DNA from: a virus
Taxonomy: Duplodnaviria; Caudoviricetes
IMG/VR virus record: IMGVR_UViG_3300042387_000502
Span: 1 to 54,071 of that record
Reading direction: 5' to 3' (one strand)
Length of the DNA stretch: 54,071 bases
The position numbers were made by a program, and so were the translations under genes. This document shows, piece by piece, positions 2,945-53,848 of this stretch (the stretch's first letter is position 1; each line of letters begins with the position of its first letter). The notes under the pieces are model-generated. The model was given only the letters and a program-made list of their open reading frames with translations, was not told the DNA's origin and did not search any database.

Positions 2945-3760
2945 ATGTCTAATGATTTAAAGTGGATGCTATCATCGGATCAGCAATTTCCATATCAAGA
3001 TGATAAAATGATTGAGCTTTGGTTTAAGGTTATGAAGTGGTTTAAGCCAGATGTTGTAGACTATCTTGGCGACACAGATGATCAGGCTTGCTACAGTAGA
3101 TTTACAGAAGGAAAGCCAACAGAGTTTTTAAAGGCATACAAGAATGACGACGTAACAAATGATTTAGAGTTAATGCTAAAAGACATGAAGTTTGAGGCAA
3201 GTGGTGCCCGTGAATTTTATGAAAGAACAAGAAAGATGCTTCCCAACGCACAGCTATTCTCAGCGTTAGGAAATCATGATATTAGAATTTTTGATTATTT
3301 AGATAAGAAAATTCCTGAATATGCAAAGCATGTTACCCCAGAAGCTTTATGGAGTTTAGATTCATTAGGATATGATTATATTTATTATAATGAATTGCCA
3401 AAGAAACGTTTTGGAGATATCCACGTCCATCATGGAATTTCAATTTCAGCAACAGGGTCGGTTAGAAAAGACATGGAAGATTTACAAGTATCTTTAATTA
3501 GAGGACATTCTCATAGGATTGCATCTCATTTAGTTACTTATGAATTAAGAAATAAAGGCAAGGGGGAAACTTTGCGTGGATATGAGATTGGTCATATGTG
3601 CGATGAAAAGGGACCAGGAATGAAATACACCCAGCATCACGATTGGCAAAAAGGATTTGCCATAGCACATATTGAAGGTGGCAAATATCCACACGTTAAC
3701 ATGATTCACGTATCTCCAGAGTATACTTGTGTTGTTGACGGAAAGTTGTTTACTTTATAA
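2945..3760 (+). CDS. calcineurin-like metallophosphoesterase
   Basis: SDxQ, LGD, GNHD, HHG and GHSH motifs. Confidence 0.85.
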   Translation: MSNDLKWMLSSDQQFPYQDDKMIELWFKVMKWFKPDVVDYLGDTDDQACYSRFTEGKPTEFLKAYKNDDVTNDLELMLKDMKFEASGAREFYERTRKMLPNAQLFSALGNHDIRIFDYLDKKIPEYAKHVTPEALWSLDSLGYDYIYYNELPKKRFGDIHVHHGISISATGSVRKDMEDLQVSLIRGHSHRIASHLVTYELRNKGKGETLRGYEIGHMCDEKGPGMKYTQHHDWQKGFAIAHIEGGKYPHVNMIHVSPEYTCVVDGKLFTL

Positions 3761-21925: not shown

Positions 21926-22167
21926 GTATATATCAAGAAAAAGCTAAAGAGTGTAAATGTTGTGGAAAACATGTTCCTCTACCAACAGTTTTAAAAGAGT
22001 ATAATGGTCTTATGATTTGTCCAACAACATTTTCAAATATAATAGAGTATACAAGAATATGGAATGCAATTGGATCAAGACCACCTGGAAATGTTAGAAA
22101 GCATTTTTCTGAGTATGTCCAGCAAATTGTAGAAGCAAATATTTCTGGGGGTAAAAATGCTATCTAA
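21922..22167 (+). CDS. hypothetical protein
   Basis: ORF, CKCC motif. Confidence 0.6.
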   Translation: MSIYQEKAKECKCCGKHVPLPTVLKEYNGLMICPTTFSNIIEYTRIWNAIGSRPPGNVRKHFSEYVQQIVEANISGGKNAI

Positions 22168-22801
22168 ATTTATTAAAAATGGATATAGTGCTAGATATGT
22201 AATAGATGAAGTAATATTAGTAGATGATTTTTTAAAAAAAGAAGAAATAGAAACTTTGCTTAAAGTTGCTGAATCTACTGATGATGATGGGTGGAGAGTA
22301 GAGTATTTAGCAAATTTAAAAAGATTTTGTTTAACAAAATTTGGTAGAGATGATGTAGATAATTTAGTTAAAGAGGGCAAATTTGAAGTAACAGATAATT
22401 GGGCAGATAAAATAATAAGTACAAACTCTTTAGATGAAAGACATGTAATTACTCAAAGACTTAAAGATATTTTAAAAGATTTTCCAGAGCTAGATATCCC
22501 AGGATTTGGAAGTATTCAAAGACAATATGATGGGGTTCCATTAAAAGAACATACAGATGTACACACAGATCCATCAATACAATATGCATCTATTATTTAT
22601 TTAAATGATAACTATAATGGTGGAGAATTTTATTTTGTGCACAAAGAATTTCAAATAAAGCCAAAACCTGGTTCACTTTTAATATTTCCTGGAACAGAAG
22701 AATTTAGGCATGGAGTAAAAGCACCAGAGGCTGGCCCAATGAGATATGTTTTGCCTGGATTTATTCATACAAAAGATTTTTATAAGCATAATAAATTTTA
22801 A
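22157..22801 (+). CDS. 2OG-Fe(II) oxygenase
   Basis: HTD, YLND.YNGGE, HGV...R. Confidence 0.87.
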   Translation: MLSKFIKNGYSARYVIDEVILVDDFLKKEEIETLLKVAESTDDDGWRVEYLANLKRFCLTKFGRDDVDNLVKEGKFEVTDNWADKIISTNSLDERHVITQRLKDILKDFPELDIPGFGSIQRQYDGVPLKEHTDVHTDPSIQYASIIYLNDNYNGGEFYFVHKEFQIKPKPGSLLIFPGTEEFRHGVKAPEAGPMRYVLPGFIHTKDFYKHNKF

Positions 22802-22847: not shown

Positions 22848-22921
22848 GCAACAGTAGCTTAGTTGGTTAAAGCCCCGAACTCATAATTCGGTAATCGTAG
22901 GTTCAAGTCCTACCTGTTGCA
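22848..22921 (+). tRNA. tRNA with CAT anticodon (elongator Met or Ile2)
   Basis: Acceptor GCAACAG/CTGTTGC, anticodon arm CCGAA-CTCATAA-TTCGG, GTTCAAGTC T-loop; TTGACC-N17-TATAAT promoter at 22806-22834; no encoded CCA. Confidence 0.93.
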
Positions 22922-22933
22922 CAAGGAGATGCT

Positions 22934-36243: not shown

Positions 36244-36867
36244 TTGATAAAAAATATAAATAATAAAATTTATATAATTGAGGGATATATATCTAAAAGC
36301 ACATCAGATTTTTTAACAGAAACATTTAATAGTACTACATCAGATGCACCAGATTACCAGATAAAAGGTGGTCCGTCCTTAAGTCCAGAAAATGGATATA
36401 CTTTTAAATGTGGTAATCCTATTAAAAGCTACCAAGATGATAATAATTACAATATTGGAATAGACATTTTGACAATGTTATGTAATTCAATGTCAAACAC
36501 AATTTCAGACTTTTTAGATACAAAAATGGATATTAAAACAATGTTTTATGGGTTAATGCTAGAAGGTTCTGAAATGAAAACGCATACAGATAATTACATT
36601 ACACCTAATGACCCAGAAAGTATTAGAAAAAATTCAAAAGACGATTGGTCTGGGCTTCTTTATCTTAACGATAATTATGAGGGTGGGCTTTTAGAGTTTC
36701 CTCAAGAAAATTTTTCAATAAAACCAAAACCTGGAACCTTTATTTTTTTTAAAGGGGATCATGATTTACCACATCAGGTGTCAAAAATTGAAAAAGGGCA
36801 TAGAAACGTAATAATATCATTTTTTTGGCCTATAAAATATCGTGGCCTAGATACTGTTTTGGGTTAG
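36244..36867 (+). CDS. 2OG-Fe(II) oxygenase
   Basis: HTD, YLNDNYEGG, HQV...R. Confidence 0.87.
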   Translation: MIKNINNKIYIIEGYISKSTSDFLTETFNSTTSDAPDYQIKGGPSLSPENGYTFKCGNPIKSYQDDNNYNIGIDILTMLCNSMSNTISDFLDTKMDIKTMFYGLMLEGSEMKTHTDNYITPNDPESIRKNSKDDWSGLLYLNDNYEGGLLEFPQENFSIKPKPGTFIFFKGDHDLPHQVSKIEKGHRNVIISFFWPIKYRGLDTVLG

Positions 36868-37470: not shown

Positions 37471-37572
37471 ATGTGCACAAGATCAATATCTAGTTCTTCG
37501 GATCTAGATATTGATATTTTAAATACTATAGATGATCAAATTGATAAAGCTGAAGGAACAGGATTAATATAG
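37471..37572 (+). CDS. 33-aa peptide
   Basis: Read manually; fills the gap, stop overlaps the next start. Confidence 0.4.
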   Translation: MCTRSISSSSDLDIDILNTIDDQIDKAEGTGLI

Positions 37573-38240
37573 TGATAGAAATTATTCATAAATCAGATAT
37601 TGTTGAGTATAAAAATGTATTTACAAAAGAAGAATGTGATTATATAATTTCATATTGGAATAGTCTTGATGACTGGATGCTCTCTTGCTTTTATAATATG
37701 TATACAATTTCTGGGAAAAAACCCCATACTAAAGAAGGCGGAGAAGCTTTAAATAAATTTAAAATGTTTTCACAAAATTTAGCCGAGAAAGTATTTAATA
37801 GGAAATTAAAACAAATTAGTGTAAGCTCTCATATGTGGCAGCCAGGTGCTTTTGCAGCAGATCATGCTGATAATGCTGAACTTGATGGTACTCCAAATGC
37901 ATGGATTGAAAATAAATTAGTTACAATGATTTATTTAAATGATAATTTTGAAGGTGGGCATTTAACTTTTAGAGATCATAAATTAGCTTTTAGGCCACAG
38001 GTTGGAAGTGTTATTGTTTTTGATGTTGGAATAAATAATGTACATGCAGTTACTGAAGTAACTTCTGGAACTAGGTATACAATGATGGCTTCTTATGACT
38101 ATGCAGATAGCGTTTATAATGTAGATTATAAAAAAATTAAAAATGAAAGTGAACCTTCTAGAAAAAAATTACAAGAAGAATGGGCAGAAGGAATTATAAT
38201 GCCTAAAAGTGCAGCTACTAGATATGACCCAATAAATTAA
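37572..38240 (+). CDS. 2OG-Fe(II) oxygenase
   Basis: HAD, YLNDNFEGG, HAV..V.SG.R. Confidence 0.87.
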   Translation: MIEIIHKSDIVEYKNVFTKEECDYIISYWNSLDDWMLSCFYNMYTISGKKPHTKEGGEALNKFKMFSQNLAEKVFNRKLKQISVSSHMWQPGAFAADHADNAELDGTPNAWIENKLVTMIYLNDNFEGGHLTFRDHKLAFRPQVGSVIVFDVGINNVHAVTEVTSGTRYTMMASYDYADSVYNVDYKKIKNESEPSRKKLQEEWAEGIIMPKSAATRYDPIN

Positions 38241-39680: not shown

Positions 39681-40247
39681 TTAATATTTTAAAGCGTAAT
39701 TTTTATCATTACCTAACCAAATTAACATAGTGTATCTAGTGTCTACTATTTTTTTAATTTCATGGTCATAATTAAGTTCTCCATTTTGAGATGGAAAACA
39801 AAAAAGGTCCCCAGAACGAGGTTGATATTTATATTCTAAATAAGGAAAATGAACTTCACCTTCATTAAATACATCATTTAAATAAATAGAGCAGGTATAT
39901 TTAATATGGGGATTTCTTCCAAAATCGTTATCTCCATGAATTTCTAAAAATGCACCATCCGTTTGTTTTGCCAACCAAAAAGAAGAAGGGTAAAGATCTT
40001 CATAACATTGATATTCAGACCTTATCTTCTCGACACATTTTTCAAAATATTTTAATACTAAATTTTTAATTTCTTCAAGTTCATTTAAATTTATTGATGA
40101 TTCATGATAATTGTCTTTACCAAACATTTTTATAAAGTATTTATTCTCTTGAAAAGATTGAAATTTATTTAAATTATTATCAATATATGTTATTACCTGA
40201 TTAGACTCTGATTTTTCAATAAATTTATTAAATATTTTTATAGTCAT
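39681..40247 (-). CDS. 2OG-Fe(II) oxygenase (inverted, leaderless)
   Basis: HGD, YLND, HEI...R; TGATACAAT 6 nt upstream. Confidence 0.85.
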   Translation of the reverse strand: MTIKIFNKFIEKSESNQVITYIDNNLNKFQSFQENKYFIKMFGKDNYHESSINLNELEEIKNLVLKYFEKCVEKIRSEYQCYEDLYPSSFWLAKQTDGAFLEIHGDNDFGRNPHIKYTCSIYLNDVFNEGEVHFPYLEYKYQPRSGDLFCFPSQNGELNYDHEIKKIVDTRYTMLIWLGNDKNYALKY

Positions 40248-40468: not shown

Positions 40469-41161
40469 ATGAAATATAATCTTGATTTGACTACAATTGA
40501 AGGAGATCTTCAATATATTGATAATTTTTTAACACAAGAAGAATTAGATTTTTTTAAACCATACATGGACGACCATGAGGGATGGTATACAACTATGCGT
40601 TCTCCATATAAAAATATTTTAAATAAATTTATTTCTGTTGATTTGCCAAGAAGACCAGATGGAAGCACTGGTGTGCCATCCGATGAGCCACCTATATTAC
40701 ATGATGTTTTTCATAGACCAATGGGAATATATGAAAGATTGTTTAAAGTTATGCCTCCAACATATAGGCCGCATAATGCTTTACAAACATTTAAATATTG
40801 TACAGATGAAGAAATTTTAAGAGATCTGCATCCAGACCTTAAAAAAGAATATAAAGGTAAAGAGCATGAAATTGATTTTGCTATGTCATTTCACTGTGAG
40901 TGGAGCGATGAAAGTACTGTGCCTGAATTTAATAGATCTTTGTCTATTTATTTAAATGATGATTTCGAGGGCGGAATTTTAGATTTTAAATTTAAACCAT
41001 ATAAAATTAAGCCAAAAGCTGGCATGCTAGTTTTGGTTCCAGTAACTCACGAATTTACTCATAGGGTTACTAAAATAACTTCTGGCAACTGGAGACACAC
41101 TCTTTATGGTGCTTCTTGGAATGGTAAATTTCCTCCTCCAAGCACAGAAGAAACTTGCTAA
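40469..41161 (+). CDS. 2OG-Fe(II) oxygenase
   Basis: HCE, YLNDDFEGG, HRV..I.SG..R. Confidence 0.82.
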   Translation: MKYNLDLTTIEGDLQYIDNFLTQEELDFFKPYMDDHEGWYTTMRSPYKNILNKFISVDLPRRPDGSTGVPSDEPPILHDVFHRPMGIYERLFKVMPPTYRPHNALQTFKYCTDEEILRDLHPDLKKEYKGKEHEIDFAMSFHCEWSDESTVPEFNRSLSIYLNDDFEGGILDFKFKPYKIKPKAGMLVLVPVTHEFTHRVTKITSGNWRHTLYGASWNGKFPPPSTEETC

Positions 41162-46940: not shown

Positions 46941-47374
46941 TGTGTTGACCCTTCTAATACTACAGGCTCCGCCTTGAAGCCTGCTTCTTGCGTTCCATAT
47001 TCAGTTGTGTTATCTGACTGCACGTCGTCAGAATCCTCGTCATCTAGCCAGCCGTCTTCCTCCAGGGCGGCAAGGTAGTCGTTGTCTATCATCCAGTCTT
47101 GGATTGCCTCATCAACATACTCTGCCCCATATTCAAGGGTAAATTCAGTTGGCGGGTTATCCCAAAGTTTCTCCCAGATATTATCCAGAGTGATACCTTC
47201 AGTAACAACATAATCATTATACTCATTAGGTTCTTTATAAGTATCATATTTGTCTGAGATTACGTCCCAAACCCATAACCATACTAATGGAGCACCAATT
47301 GGCATACCATTTAAAGTCTTAATAATTTGATCTAACTGCATTTTAGTTTGTGGACCTAGATCTTTATTAACCAC
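46937..47374 (-). CDS. acidic hypothetical protein
   Basis: ORF in operon. Confidence 0.7.
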   Translation of the reverse strand: MVNKDLGPQTKMQLDQIIKTLNGMPIGAPLVWLWVWDVISDKYDTYKEPNEYNDYVVTEGITLDNIWEKLWDNPPTEFTLEYGAEYVDEAIQDWMIDNDYLAALEEDGWLDDEDSDDVQSDNTTEYGTQEAGFKAEPVVLEGSTQ

Positions 47375-47615
47375 GTTGTTTAGCCCTTTCGTTGATAGCG
47401 AATGATAAATTATACGTCATAACATAGATTTCTGTCAATGCGTCTAGTCGACCTGAAAAATATTTATATTCAGGCATATCCTGTAATTCAGATATGTCTA
47501 ACAGTTTAGTTTCACATTCATACATTAGATTCTTCATATGTCCATGCATGATGTCTGTACCTGTCTCACCCATGTCTACAAGCTTTTGAAGATGTGTGTC
47601 AAGTTTGTCACTCAT
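47367..47615 (-). CDS. hypothetical protein
   Basis: ORF in operon. Confidence 0.7.
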   Translation of the reverse strand: MSDKLDTHLQKLVDMGETGTDIMHGHMKNLMYECETKLLDISELQDMPEYKYFSGRLDALTEIYVMTYNLSFAINERAKQRG

Positions 47616-47788: not shown

Positions 47789-47933
47789 CTATATACCCTT
47801 CTGCTAGTAGGCCTTCAAAGAAGTCCCATATGGTTAATAGACCTTGCTTAACATCAGGGTCGGAAGCGGAATCAATAGCAACAGTTAAACTATTACCAAA
47901 GTTCTGTATATCCTTATATGTATATCCTAACAT
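47766..47933 (-). CDS. hypothetical protein
   Basis: Read manually: MLGYTYKDIQNF...DFFEGLLAEGYI. Confidence 0.55.
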   Translation of the reverse strand: MLGYTYKDIQNFGNSLTVAIDSASDPDVKQGLLTIWDFFEGLLAEGYIDENTYYG

Positions 47934-48166
47934 TCTATGTAGTATTCCTCTCCAGGTTCTACCTGCCAGTATTCATTAAATTGTTTCTTGACGGATTCAT
48001 CAGAACACATACTTGCCATTTCATAGTCAGCAATAAACATACCTTCATCTATATGACCAGTTATCCAAGAATCAAATAACTGTTCTTGAATATCTTGTAA
48101 TACAGCGTCTGATATATGCTTAGGCATATCATCAAACATACTAGGTTTATCATTTTGATATCCCAT
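47927..48166 (-). CDS. acidic hypothetical protein
   Basis: CGAAAGGAA RBS; first gene after the promoter at 48190-48211. Confidence 0.7.
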   Translation of the reverse strand: MGYQNDKPSMFDDMPKHISDAVLQDIQEQLFDSWITGHIDEGMFIADYEMASMCSDESVKKQFNEYWQVEPGEEYYIEC

Positions 48167-48189
48167 ATATTCCTTTCGCTAGGACCTTA

Positions 48190-48211
48190 ATTATATAACA
48201 GACCACTGACA
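48190..48211 (-). promoter_or_regulatory. PafBC/RecA-NDp-type promoter
   Basis: TGTCAG-TGGTCTGTTA-TATAAT. Confidence 0.75.
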
Positions 48212-48320
48212 TTGTATATAGAATATAGGTGTGTTTCACACCACATGTCCAAGCTTTGAGATTTCAGGGAAATATATTTGACTGTCGTAAACAACATATG
48301 CTACCCTCACCCGTGAGCGC

Positions 48321-48452
48321 AAAAGAGAAGCCCCCGTGTATGGGATCACGGGGACTAAGATAAATGGCTGCTAGGACCTCAACGAAAGGAAAAACCTGCC
48401 TTACTTAGCATCTAGAGGAGATGCACCATTTATATAAATAGGCACAAGGCCT
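48321..48452 (-). ncRNA. candidate trans-acting sRNA with anti-RBS seed
   Basis: TGATATAAT promoter at 48459-48467; seed UUCCUUUCGUUGA; terminator CCCCGUG/CACGGGG plus CUUCUCUUUU. Confidence 0.6.
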
Positions 48453-48469
48453 ATTCAAATTATATCACA

Positions 48470-48874
48470 CTAAACGAGTAATCTTTCCAGCGCATACTTC
48501 TCACAGAACGCCGATAGGTCCATGGTAAAAATTGCTTCATTCTTCATACCAAGAACTTTGTTTTCAAGGTTTCGGTGATCGTCTTGCTCATGTAGCGAGA
48601 ACGTTTGATCTTTCCAGTTGATAACAGCAATCTTATGCTCGTTATCTCCAATTGAATTTACTTGAAGACCCCAGCCTGTTTCCATGTTCCATTGATCTCC
48701 GATTAATTGACTGATCGCAATACGTGTAGCATATGATTCATCTGTCCAACGGGGACGGGCAGCAATGACAGCATCCGCCAATTTACCTAACATGTTATAT
48801 CCAGCCCAATGTCCATACAGACATATAGTGTCGCCTGCTCCGTCTACGAATACGTAGTTTGCTCTATCTCCCAT
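48470..48874 (-). CDS. conserved phage hypothetical protein
   Basis: MGDRAN...LYGHWAG...RW.D.SY. Confidence 0.75.
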   Translation of the reverse strand: MGDRANYVFVDGAGDTICLYGHWAGYNMLGKLADAVIAARPRWTDESYATRIAISQLIGDQWNMETGWGLQVNSIGDNEHKIAVINWKDQTFSLHEQDDHRNLENKVLGMKNEAIFTMDLSAFCEKYALERLLV

Positions 48875-49101
48875 TATATTTCCGCCTTTTCTAGTTGAGG
48901 GACTTTTTCTGTTTTATTTAATTCTACTATTTCTAGTGTTACTTTGTCAAGAGCCTGTTTATTCTTGTTTAAATGGTGGCTACAGAAGCTGAGCTCATTT
49001 GATGTAAGCCCTCCCACTGTATCTACATCTGACTTATTAACAAATCTAATTATCCATTTAGCCTGAGCTGGACAAGAATCGCATTTAATCCATTCGCTCA
49101 T
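48874..49101 (-). CDS. zinc-binding protein (actinobacterial CDxC...FCxHH type)
   Basis: CDSC.AQA...LSFCSHH. Confidence 0.7.
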   Translation of the reverse strand: MSEWIKCDSCPAQAKWIIRFVNKSDVDTVGGLTSNELSFCSHHLNKNKQALDKVTLEIVELNKTEKVPQLEKAEI

Positions 49102-49476: not shown

Positions 49477-50108
49477 TAGTTCCAATCCACATCTGTGTCT
49501 TCAATTGACCAATCATTTACTTCAACATCATTGCCATATGATGTTAATGAAAGTTCATCTCCGAGTTTGTAATGAGCGTCAAAGTTATCAATCTCATCAA
49601 GTGGGACCTGAACAGTTACTTCAAAGTTAATAGTTCCAGTTACTGTAACTGTCTTTGATAATTCAAAGCCAAACAGTTCTGATATTTGTTGAAGCGCTTC
49701 TTCTTTTGTATAATTAGGATTATACAATTCAACTAGAAGTTCCTCTAACTCATTAACTTTAAGTTTAAGGCCATTGTATAAATCATCAGCACGGCGACCT
49801 TGTTCAAGGGCCCATTCGATGTCGACTACCTTCTCTGTCGAGTAAGTTGTCTCCCCGTTAAAAATCTTCTTGTAAGTTACAAGTAGATTAGAGTTATACT
49901 CATTAGGTACTGCAGGTGTTATTGTTGCTCCATATGTTTCCATTTTATTCCTTTCGTTGGTTGAGAGTATTGTAGCATCTTGCACTGACAATAAGGTGGA
50001 CCGTATCAAACAGTGTGAAATATTTGTAGCTTCCCCTTTTCGTGTTACCTCAATCAAGGCATCACAATTAGTGCAAAGGTATGTATCCTTAAACCATTTG
50101 TCAGTCAT
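49476..50108 (-). CDS. hypothetical protein with a second in-frame start at 49943
   Basis: Coupled ATG at 50108; internal promoter and RBS before the ATG at 49943. Confidence 0.7.
   Translation of the reverse strand: MTDKWFKDTYLCTNCDALIEVTRKGEATNISHCLIRSTLLSVQDATILSTNERNKMETYGATITPAVPNEYNSNLLVTYKKIFNGETTYSTEKVVDIEWALEQGRRADDLYNGLKLKVNELEELLVELYNPNYTKEEALQQISELFGFELSKTVTVTGTINFEVTVQVPLDEIDNFDAHYKLGDELSLTSYGNDVEVNDWSIEDTDVDWN
49969..49990 (-). promoter_or_regulatory. PafBC/RecA-NDp-type promoter
   Basis: TGTCAG-TGCAAGATGC-TACAAT. Confidence 0.75.
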
Positions 50109-50839
50109 ACTTTAACCTTATGAACACTGCATTCTGCCATGGCCTGTTCATCTTGCCAAGATCCTTGATTACAAAGTTCACAGAATTCACCGCATCCCTC
50201 TTCGCAGTATTCTATTGTATTGTAAGATTGACAGGCATAGCAACGATTTTGATATTCCATTAATTCGTTAACCTCACCACGGACAATCTCGTATTCTCCG
50301 CCCCAACCTGTTTCTTCCTCAAATTCAAGGGTTAGTAAAGAGTTAGGAACAAGATTACTTAGTTTAGTTAATATAGTTACAGCAGGTGACCAAGCAGTAT
50401 TATATTTATATACCAACCAGTTATCATCACCGTCTGATGTGTATTCAAGTAATTCAGTATCAGGATACTCGTCACCGTCTGATACGGCTACATCCCATTT
50501 AGTTCCCCAGTTAGTTGTATTCCATGAATACCAATCTTTCTGAGTCATAGCATGCGCTACCTCTTTAGCAAACCAATCAGGTGCACTCGTGTCTGTTCCT
50601 AGTCGTGTAGGCTGTTGAACATATTCTTGCATTGTAATACCGTCTTGTAGTGGAGAATGTATATTCCAAAATGCAAAGACAGGATTAGAGTAAGTTGATT
50701 CTGTTATTTCCATTTTCATAGTTTCCATATTCCAACTATCGTGCCATACCATAAATGGCTCGTTAAGTTTATCTTTGATAAAATCTATCTCAGACTTTGG
50801 ACCTTGGATTGTTAATGTGTTATACACCCAGTTAGGCAT
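50105..50839 (-). CDS. YubB/DUF1281 (Api92-like ferredoxin-fold) protein
   Basis: MPNWVYNTL, WYSWN..NWGTKWD, YNTAWSP. Confidence 0.8.
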   Translation of the reverse strand: MPNWVYNTLTIQGPKSEIDFIKDKLNEPFMVWHDSWNMETMKMEITESTYSNPVFAFWNIHSPLQDGITMQEYVQQPTRLGTDTSAPDWFAKEVAHAMTQKDWYSWNTTNWGTKWDVAVSDGDEYPDTELLEYTSDGDDNWLVYKYNTAWSPAVTILTKLSNLVPNSLLTLEFEEETGWGGEYEIVRGEVNELMEYQNRCYACQSYNTIEYCEEGCGEFCELCNQGSWQDEQAMAECSVHKVKV

Positions 50840-50864
50840 ATTATTCCTTTCGTTGAATAGCGCA

Positions 50865-50886
50865 ATTGTAGCAGAGTCAACTGACA
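50865..50886 (-). promoter_or_regulatory. PafBC/RecA-NDp-type promoter
   Basis: TGTCAG-TTGACTCTGC-TACAAT. Confidence 0.75.
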
Positions 50887-50958
50887 TTATCAAGGATTTC
50901 AGGGCTTTTTATACACATGCCGTAAAAAAGAAAAATGGCCTTTACGTCTGGGGGCTTG

Positions 50959-51032
50959 CGATCCATAACGGACTTGAACCGTCGACCTCTACCGTGACAG
51001 GGTAGCGCTCTAACCAACTGAGCTAATGGACC
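50959..51032 (-). tRNA. tRNA-Asp(GTC)
   Basis: Acceptor GGTCCAT/ATGGATC, anticodon arm CTACC-CTGTCAC-GGTAG, GTTCAAGTC T-loop, G73. Confidence 0.95.
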
Positions 51033-52071: not shown

Positions 52072-52098
52072 TTTATCCTTTCGTTTGGTTGAATGCTT

Positions 52099-52120
52099 AT
52101 TCTAACATACACGACTGACA
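52099..52120 (-). promoter_or_regulatory. PafBC/RecA-NDp-type promoter
   Basis: TGTCAG-TCGTGTATGT-TAGAAT. Confidence 0.75.
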
Positions 52121-52951: not shown

Positions 52952-52988
52952 TTGTGTTTCCTTTCGTTGGTTGGTTGTTGTTATGAGT

Positions 52989-53798: not shown

Positions 53799-53826
53799 TT
53801 GCTACCTTTCGTTGGTTGATAAGAGT

Positions 53827-53848
53827 ATTTTACACTATGCCACTGACA
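53827..53848 (-). promoter_or_regulatory. PafBC/RecA-NDp-type promoter
   Basis: TGTCAG-TGGCATAGTG-TAAAAT. Confidence 0.75.

Follow-up and report, generated by a model that had tools for sequence, protein, structure and literature searches.

Regulatory RNAs of phages are, to our knowledge, known mainly from a few enterobacterial phages and usually have one target each. Among bacterial RNAs, mycobacterial 6C/B11 and staphylococcal RsaE and RNAIII present unpaired pyrimidine-rich loops to the purine-rich Shine-Dalgarno (SD) sequences of several mRNAs in hosts without Hfq, and small RNAs (sRNAs) derived from 3′ untranslated regions can arise both as an mRNA 3′ end and from a promoter of their own. 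Here, we describe an RNA encoded on the − strand of a virus contig of 54,071 bases (IMG/VR record IMGVR_UViG_3300042387_000502; this whole stretch is referred to as the window), which lies directly downstream of a gene for a 134-amino-acid protein (the 134-aa gene) and carries one loop that is antisense to a word in the leaders of early genes. Like 6C/B11, RsaE, and RNAIII, it matches several SD regions with a C/U-rich loop, but it is phage encoded, its seed reaches a leader-specific AAC prefix, and it has no Rfam similarity to those RNAs. By analogy, the window RNA may work most like c4 of phages P1 and P7, a folded phage RNA that is co-transcribed with its target and whose loops pair around the ribosome-binding site, so that translation is blocked (PMC12197685). 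Both are phage RNAs made from the transcription unit of their target, with short complementary stretches in loops and with pairing, here predicted, in the region of the ribosome-binding site. The two differ in that c4 has a single operon (icd-ant) as its target and an immunity role in temperate enterobacterial phages, whereas the one loop of the window RNA faces 7 to 14 separate early leaders in lake phages of about 115 kb; the three-way junction of the window RNA is related to c4 neither in sequence nor through Rfam.

The locus lies on the − strand between the stop codon of the 134-aa open reading frame (ORF) and the ATG of the next gene at 48166, in the order promoter, small hairpin, 75-nucleotide (nt) unit, and intrinsic terminator (Table 1). 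A preliminary description of this DNA, made by a model from the letters alone, had proposed here an ORF-free − strand unit with its own extended −10 element, an enclosing stem, internal hairpins, and a terminator, and all of these parts were located in the sequence. The internal hairpins are GCATCT/AGATGC and GCAGG...CCU(A)GC, and the middle of the unit reads GGUUUUUCCUUUCGUUGAGG. A unit of 136 nt folded at −42.8 kcal/mol (z = −3.08), and 0 of 200 shuffled sequences did as well. Transcription of the RNA would start just upstream of the 5′ terminal hairpin. The same description had assigned the −10 element to a class used in the + strand gene block; the promoter element is indeed present, but the class (TGNTATAAT) occurs on both strands and is only mildly enriched (13 copies versus 7.6 expected, with 4 of 100 shuffles reaching 13).

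Using the neighbouring 134-aa protein as a handle, we gathered 64 related IMG/VR loci, and the same element was found 3′ of the 134-aa gene wherever a locus extended far enough downstream; the loop 23-mer was retained unchanged even where the protein was only 73 to 82% identical. RNAalifold, applied to 29 long-type sequences, returned a three-way junction in which P1 has 7 bp, P2 has 6 bp stacked directly on P1, and P3 has 5 bp with one bulged base, while the P2-P3 junction is 8 nt long and reads UAA(G/A)UAAR. This scaffold and its conserved junction bases were absent from the preliminary description. The covariance model R1, built from these 29 sequences with the window copy excluded, scored the window copy at 52.9 bits (E = 2 × 10−10) and matched 49 of 50 sources, one match each and on the gene-sense strand every time; in a second test, 62 of 65 sources were matched. 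All five genomes that are 92 to 100% complete (113 to 116.5 kb) have exactly one copy of the RNA (5/5).

The preliminary description had named covariation among related genomes as a check, and for the RNA itself this was borne out. Across 47 distinct sequences, 98.1% of the cells at pairing positions were paired, compared with 79.9% in shuffled alignments (0 of 500 reached the observed value) and 26 to 49% with slid partners, and there were 152 double-change cells versus 42.9 in the shuffles. A second set of 41 distinct sequences gave 94.0% paired cells versus 78.4%. P1 contains an invariant U.G pair and P2 frequent G.U pairs, which would become A.C on the opposite strand, and the RNA is therefore read from the window − strand. 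A degenerate pattern scan of IMG/VR added at least 119 stretches. The RNA family, of more than 100 members, is real, conserved, structured, and under selection.

This family is new to the libraries searched and is a member of no described family; Rfam holds none of it. At gathering thresholds, Rfam 15 models found only two tRNAs in the whole window, and at E values up to 10 on positions 47800 to 48900 they gave only chance-level rows; the best of these over the element was RsaD (15.2 bits; threshold, 50). Five relatives of other loop types returned nothing below E = 0.1 in Rfam. No description of this RNA or of the leader word was found in the literature at the level of listings and abstracts.

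To describe how the locus varies, we used the 99 unique loci that have full flanks. An extended −10 of the form TGNTA(T/C)A(A/C)T, 26 to 39 nt before P1, is present in 73 of the 99 (72 of 97 by a second count), and a terminator was found by simple criteria in 79. Both signals occur in 67 loci, the terminator without the promoter in 12, the promoter without the terminator in 6, and neither in 14. In 65 of the 72 promoter-bearing relatives, a hairpin with 5 or more bp starts no more than 13 nt after the −10; it is built from many different stems and would look like the stabilising 5′ end of a primary transcript. The loop falls into types A (UUCCUUUCGUU, the window's type), B (UUUUACUUUCGUUGGU, mostly in loci without promoter or terminator), and C (UUAUUUCUUUCGUUGGA). 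CTTTCGTT stands in the P3 loop of all 99 loci while the stems vary, and the loop core CUUUCGUU is the sole stretch that never changes (99/99). In one relative, L060, the three-way junction has been swapped for a plain 9-bp hairpin that presents the loop UUUCCUUUCGUUCUC and is followed by a strong terminator. Since L060 keeps only the loop, and since all 99 loci hold the core while their stems vary, the loop rather than the scaffold is the indispensable part of the RNA.

The conserved seed is exactly antisense, over 12 nt, to three leaders of the window and, over 9 to 10 nt, to four more. The 12-nt word CAACGAAAGGAA has four exact copies in the window, three on the − strand and one on the + strand, where 0.00 were expected from 100 shuffles; the + strand copy (48380–91) is inside the RNA, and the window has no other on the opposite strand. 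As the preliminary description had stated, the seed is complementary to the leaders before 49943, 50839, and 52951 over 12 nt and to those before 48166, 52071, and 53798 over 9 to 10 nt, and its copy is the only one in opposite orientation; the leader of the GTG start at 47374 adds another match, of 10 nt. That description had also suggested target prediction, and when duplex energies were computed against the 143 initiation regions of the window, the six best were all − strand leaders (−22.3 to −18.3 kcal/mol; mean of all regions, −9.6; standard deviation, 3.9). The prefix CG to AAAGG/A before start codons occurs in 6 of 21 cases on the − strand versus 1 of 79 on the + strand, whose genes use AAAGGAG.

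The leader word is likewise a family feature. (A)ACGAAAGGA stands 4 to 8 nt before the start codon in the first genes of early transcripts in every relative. Copies of AACGAAAGG number 7 to 14 per genome, all in a single orientation and clustered within about 10 kb around the RNA gene, in ten complete or near-complete genomes (in five of the ten, the count was made with AACGAAAG), compared with 0 to 7 copies of a reversed control word in the same ten (0 to 2 in the five counted with AACGAAAGG). Opposite the loop core CUUUCGUU stands the leader core AACGAAAG; both are invariant, and the two are co-conserved across the family. A gene of the MPNW type (DUF1281_C/Api92-like), located immediately after the RNA in most relatives and at 50839 in the window, has a leader with further structure: the flanking UAUUC/GAAUA can form a hairpin (within 50839–50870 in the window and at about 3650–3700 of the related loci) that places AACGAAAG in an 8-nt loop and part of the SD in its 3′ strand. 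In 55 of 80 unique leaders of this gene, the loop AACGAAAG can be closed by a stem of 4 bp or more, with some covariation (AUAUC/GAUAU to (C/U)AUUC/GAAU(G/A)), which makes a loop-loop kiss with the RNA plausible.

The early leaders also share promoters. The motif TGTCAGT-N9-TAnnnT, which resembles the actinobacterial PafBC or RecA-independent DNA-damage promoter motif, has five matches in the window versus 0.31 expected, and these precede the genes at 48166, 49943, 50839, 52071, and 53798. The preliminary description had reserved the PafBC-type assignment for 48166, 52071, and 53798; the motif does precede these three, but 49943 and 50839 carry it too. The promoter of the 52951 gene is an extended −10 and not of the TGTCAGT type. 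In most relatives, TGTCAGT-N9-TAnnnT also precedes the MPNW gene. If the PafBC likeness holds, early transcription of the phage would be tied to a host stress regulator.

Table 1. Positions of the RNA, the early leaders and promoters, and other features in the window
Feature	Position	Strand	Remarks
Extended −10 TGATATAAT	48459–48467	−	just past the TAG stop (48472–48470) of the 134-aa ORF
5′ terminal hairpin UAGGC-CUUGU-GCCUA	48439–48453	−	from the fold
RNA core, three-way junction, 75 nt	48360–48434	−	enclosed by AUAAAUGG/CCAUUUAU
Enclosing stem ATAAATGG/CCATTTAT	48427–48434 with 48360–48367	−	
P1	48425–48433 with 48360–48368	−	
P2 hairpin	48408–48424	−	
J2/3 UAAGUAAG	48400–48407	−	
P3	48370–48399	−	
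P3 loop UUUUUCCUUUCGUUGAGGU, proposed seed	48376–48394	−	complement of the leader word
Invariant loop core CUUUCGUU	48381–48388	−	
Intrinsic terminator	48321–48356	−	G+C-rich stem-loop of 10 pairs, 48329–48356; U-rich tail TCTCTTTTGC, 48321–48328
134-aa gene, phrog_31860	48470–48874	−	always precedes the RNA
Leader CAACGAAAGGGC before GTG 47374	47383–47394	−	10-nt match; duplex −20.6 kcal/mol
Leader UAGCGAAAGGAA before ATG 48166	48170–48181	−	9-nt match; −18.5 kcal/mol
Leader CAACGAAAGGAA before ATG 49943	49948–49959	−	−19.7 kcal/mol
Leader CAACGAAAGGAA before ATG 50839	50844–50855	−	MPNW/DUF1281_C-type gene; −22.3 kcal/mol
Leader AAACGAAAGGAU before ATG 52071	52075–52086	−	10-nt match; −18.3 kcal/mol
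Leader CAACGAAAGGAA before ATG 52951	52958–52969	−	−22.0 kcal/mol
Leader CAACGAAAGGUA before ATG 53798	53803–53814	−	10-nt match; −16.1 kcal/mol
TGTCAGT-N9-TAnnnT promoter	48190–48211	−	
TGTCAGT-N9-TAnnnT promoter	49969–49990	−	
TGTCAGT-N9-TAnnnT promoter	50865–50886	−	
TGTCAGT-N9-TAnnnT promoter	52099–52120	−	
TGTCAGT-N9-TAnnnT promoter	53827–53848	−	
phrog_61/phrog_2297-type paralogue	22157–22801		
phrog_61/phrog_2297-type paralogue	36244–36867		
phrog_61/phrog_2297-type paralogue	37572–38240		
phrog_61/phrog_2297-type paralogue	39681–40247	−	
phrog_61/phrog_2297-type paralogue	40469–41161		

From these comparisons of sequence, we lean towards an anti-leader RNA, in which the loop of the three-way junction would pair with the early-leader word that overlaps the SD and damp translation of the early genes. 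The RNA would be made as the 3′ end of an early operon that ends with the 134-aa gene and, in most relatives, also as a primary transcript of about 130 nt that would run from its own extended −10, through a protective 5′ hairpin, to the intrinsic terminator. The P1/P2/P3 junction would hold out the P3 loop, whose core CUUUCGUU, extended in the window to UUCCUUUCGUUG, would pair with (C)AACGAAAGGA(A) in the short leaders of 7 to 14 early transcripts, at a word that overlaps their SD, GAAAGGA. Such pairing would block binding of the 30S subunit and might trigger decay; at the MPNW-type gene, the contact could start as a loop-loop kiss with the leader hairpin. Because it ends the early operon and has a constitutive-looking promoter, the RNA would accumulate and act back on the early genes, so that translation of the early block would be turned down as the level of the stable RNA rises, in the manner of a delayed negative feedback or timer. 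We infer the pairing of the RNA with the leaders in vivo, the repressive sign of its effect, and its timing. The preliminary description had gone further in holding that one sRNA silences the whole early regulon: a discrete, conserved, structured RNA with an antisense loop is indeed there, but loci without signals of their own and a relative with the leaders and no RNA, both taken up below, do not fit so general a claim.

Several findings weigh against the anti-leader reading, the first of them concerning the match between seed and leader. When the window RNA is folded, CCUU of the seed can pair with GAGG within the same loop. The B (UUACUUUCGUUGG) and C (UUUCUUUCGUUGG) loops lose the CC that faces GG of the leader, and the leaders have no compensating change; in a cross matrix, B and C loops paired with their own leaders no better than A loops did, and the duplex energies of own versus foreign loops revealed no advantage for own loops. 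Nor is the extra GG of the B and C loops matched by more CCAAC leaders (5 of 57 versus 6 of 68). At the level of genomes, CGAAAG leaders continue with GAA in 37 of 68 cases where the loop has CC, compared with 4 of 57 where it has AC or UC (Fisher p = 9 × 10−9), a p value that overstates the case, since the leaders and the 11 related genomes are non-independent and perhaps only one or two evolutionary events are involved. Thus, of the conservation and covariation of seed and leaders that the preliminary description had looked for in relatives, the co-conserved cores and the GAA correlation are present, but a clean compensatory change is not.

The loop could instead mimic the 3′ tail of 16S rRNA (UCCUUUC) and act as a general decoy that soaks up SDs or binds an anti-SD factor or toxin, which we consider improbable. 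The A-type loop UUCCUUUC shares 7 nt with the actinobacterial anti-SD, CCUCCUUUCU, and SDs of the AAAGGA type are used by both the leaders and the late genes. The family variants argue otherwise, as types B (UACUUUC) and C (UUCUUUC) lose the CC of the anti-SD while CUUUCGUU is invariant. The conserved GUU, moreover, faces AAC of the leaders, and 16S pairing leaves it unexplained, while the + strand AAAGGAG genes score poorly in duplex energy. Both GGUGCGGCU and AAGUCG...UAA resemble the 3′ minor domain of the rRNA, and GGUGCGGCU in particular 16S helix 45, but the likeness is not kept in the family, where these bases vary, and mimicry of that helix was dropped.

A second difficulty for the anti-leader reading comes from a more distant relative, Actinomycetia phage DSL-LC01, whose 134-aa homologue is 43% identical. 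This phage has 22 ACGAAAGG leaders, all in one orientation, within about 20 kb (24 to 43 kb of the record), and in its 129 kb we found neither an antisense copy of the leader word nor a match to the covariance model. The word is therefore maintained without the RNA and serves an independent function, one that the RNA may exploit; it is older and wider than the RNA. One might take it for a DNA operator of an early-gene regulator, with the copy in the RNA gene as one more site whose orientation is irrelevant. DSL-LC01, which keeps the word without the RNA, would agree with an operator, as would the position of the word at about +5 to +25 of many promoters, the usual place of a repressor roadblock. 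We nevertheless rate an operator as very improbable: within the RNA gene the word always occupies the loop of a helix with covariation support, it is still in a hairpin loop in L060, and its overlap with the SD of the leaders comes at a constant distance from the start codon, which argues for a role at the RNA level.

The third group of findings that the anti-leader reading must accommodate concerns the RNA as a free molecule. The 14 of 99 loci with neither promoter nor terminator are mostly of loop type B; a free small RNA is thus not universal, and an early operon can also carry the RNA simply as its 3′ end. Conservation of the junction bases (UAAGUAAA, a bulged A, and the invariant U.G) exceeds what a display scaffold needs and hints at a protein or ribosome partner outside the anti-leader model. 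Expression data bear on the same point. In contigs of three of four lake metatranscriptome runs, the 134-aa gene, its stop codon, the promoter, and part of the RNA form one continuous sequence; such contigs tell of presence in RNA libraries only and give neither strand nor ends. They stop inside P3, at 48371 (X1 and X3) or 48377 (X4), with no loose end, and the terminator is uncovered; across the four runs, positions 48170 to 48370, which hold the terminator, a conserved block, and the next promoter, have no coverage. The stop may stem from strain branching in the assembly, and the contigs say nothing firm about the 3′ end.

These features would also suit a cis-acting element of the early operon that acts on its own transcript or on RNA polymerase, with the leader match being secondary: a processive antiterminator of the put or EAR kind, an element for mRNA stabilisation or processing, or a platform for a protein such as the 134-aa protein. 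HK022 put and the EAR antiterminators are compact, conserved RNA structures that lie in an operon just upstream of terminators. The window RNA shares this compactness, conservation, and location in an operon before a terminator, and position is the sole argument for the likeness; it differs in having its own promoter in most loci, a leader-antisense loop, a scaffold that is dispensable in L060, and no sequence or Rfam similarity to them. We judge a cis-acting element to be unlikely, though not negligibly so. It would account for the constant place of the RNA at the 3′ end of the same gene, just before the terminator and within a co-oriented gene array, for the 14 loci without promoter or terminator, for junction nucleotides conserved beyond the needs of base pairing, and for RNA-library contigs that run unbroken from the 134-aa gene into the element. 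It would not account for a dedicated promoter in 73 of 99 loci followed by a 5′ hairpin in most of these (65 of 72), or for the fact that the most conserved part is an unpaired loop, exactly antisense to the leader word with a chance expectation of 0.00. L060, in addition, drops the scaffold and keeps the loop, and P1 and the terminator showed no alternative pairing with each other.

Beyond the anti-leader RNA as set out above, a wider proposal can be put forward tentatively, and we think it rather doubtful: the RNA might be a regulon-wide translational timer, whose scaffolded loop reads an address shared by 7 to 22 early leaders and shuts all of them down by loop-leader or loop-loop pairing in hosts without Hfq. 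The same RNA might then silence superinfecting relatives and provide cross-immunity among lytic lake phages, and its junction bases might bind a partner, possibly the 134-aa protein. Silencing of the early genes of superinfecting relatives would be possible because members of the phage family have this address in common, even those, such as DSL-LC01, that lack the RNA.

Other candidates were set aside. ARAGORN and the Rfam tRNA and transfer-messenger RNA (tmRNA) models find nothing at the element. The Streptomyces phage MindFlayer (L208 2001–2695) has its homologue of the 134-aa gene as gene 184, followed 20 nt on, inside a tRNA cluster, by a tmRNA gene (gene 185), which like the window RNA is directly downstream of the homologue; the tmRNA is 279 nt long, unlike the RNA, with 75 to 100 nt. 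Local alignment to that tmRNA scored 20 versus a shuffle mean of 20 to 21, and the arrangement is not repeated in Nocardia phage NTR1 or in DSL-LC01, both of which have no RNA gene after the 134-aa homologue. An alternative hairpin, UAAGUAAA/UUUACUUA, is the minimum-free-energy fold in L038, but neither the window type nor L040 contains UUUACUUA, G-to-A changes are uncompensated, and the hairpin is not a family feature. A riboswitch with a terminator platform fits poorly: 20 of 99 loci have no terminator, the gene that follows is served by a promoter of its own, and alternative pairing is not apparent.

Between the terminator and the next promoter, a block conserved throughout the family (about 48262–48320, − strand) reads GC(G/C)C-N-C...GAGGGTA(N)CATAT-N6-TTTACG(N3-4)GTCAA(N8-10)CCTGAAAT and contains a −10-like GGGTAnnnT and a small CCC/GGG hairpin. 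Farther on, upstream of the 48166 promoter, is the palindrome GGTGTG-AAA-CACACC (48228–48242, − strand), in place of which relatives have GGCATGT-ATC-ACATGCC or GGCGGG-AATC-ACA; it could be either an operator or an RNA hairpin.

Homologues of the 134-aa protein were found in actinophage records only (34/34), and 54 columns are invariant among 28 sequences (for instance, HW.G, DNEHK, and FSLH). The protein has no Pfam match and no PDB match by sequence, and in the ESM Atlas it falls into unnamed viral clusters only. Its AlphaFold model is confident (predicted local distance difference test score [pLDDT], 89; predicted template modelling score [pTM], 0.85), and with this model Foldseek returned nothing at E ≤ 0.001, while the best Z score in the wide VIA search was 3.7. 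As modelled, the protein may be a new small fold that is always paired with the RNA.

The window has an estimated completeness of 50% and a G+C content of 34.3%, and its − strand gene block extends from about 43.5 kb to the window end. ARAGORN finds two tRNAs and no others: tRNA-Met(CAT) at 22848–22922 in the + strand block (+ strand) and tRNA-Asp(GTC) at 50958–51032 (− strand), which sits in the early block directly upstream of the 50839 promoter. Five paralogous genes of the window match the 2-oxoglutarate-Fe(II) oxygenase/endonuclease-V-like PHROGs phrog_61 and phrog_2297, an unusual expansion. Since the 134-aa homologues occur only in actinophages, a WhiB-like domain was found in the window, and the runs with its sequence are from lake water, the host is probably a low-GC freshwater actinobacterium. 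Sampled words of the window were present at 7 to 47% in 24 lake or freshwater metatranscriptome runs, and a blastn search of positions 47900 to 48900 against 50,697 phage records gave no match. In a prokaryote genome collection, the covariance model matched only three contigs, of 2.9 to 3.5 kb, from metagenome-assembled genomes (L083, L086, and L087). They are labelled Bacteroidia, Polynucleobacter, and unclassified, show the phage gene order (134-aa gene, RNA, MPNW gene), and are probably phage fragments mis-binned into bacterial genomes.

Thus, an RNA family occupies a fixed place in an abundant group of lake phages of about 115 kb, and its more than 100 natural variants are available for study of the structure. 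If the pairing with the early leaders is functional, the family would show a large lytic phage timing its early programme by translation, and sRNA control in hosts without Hfq.

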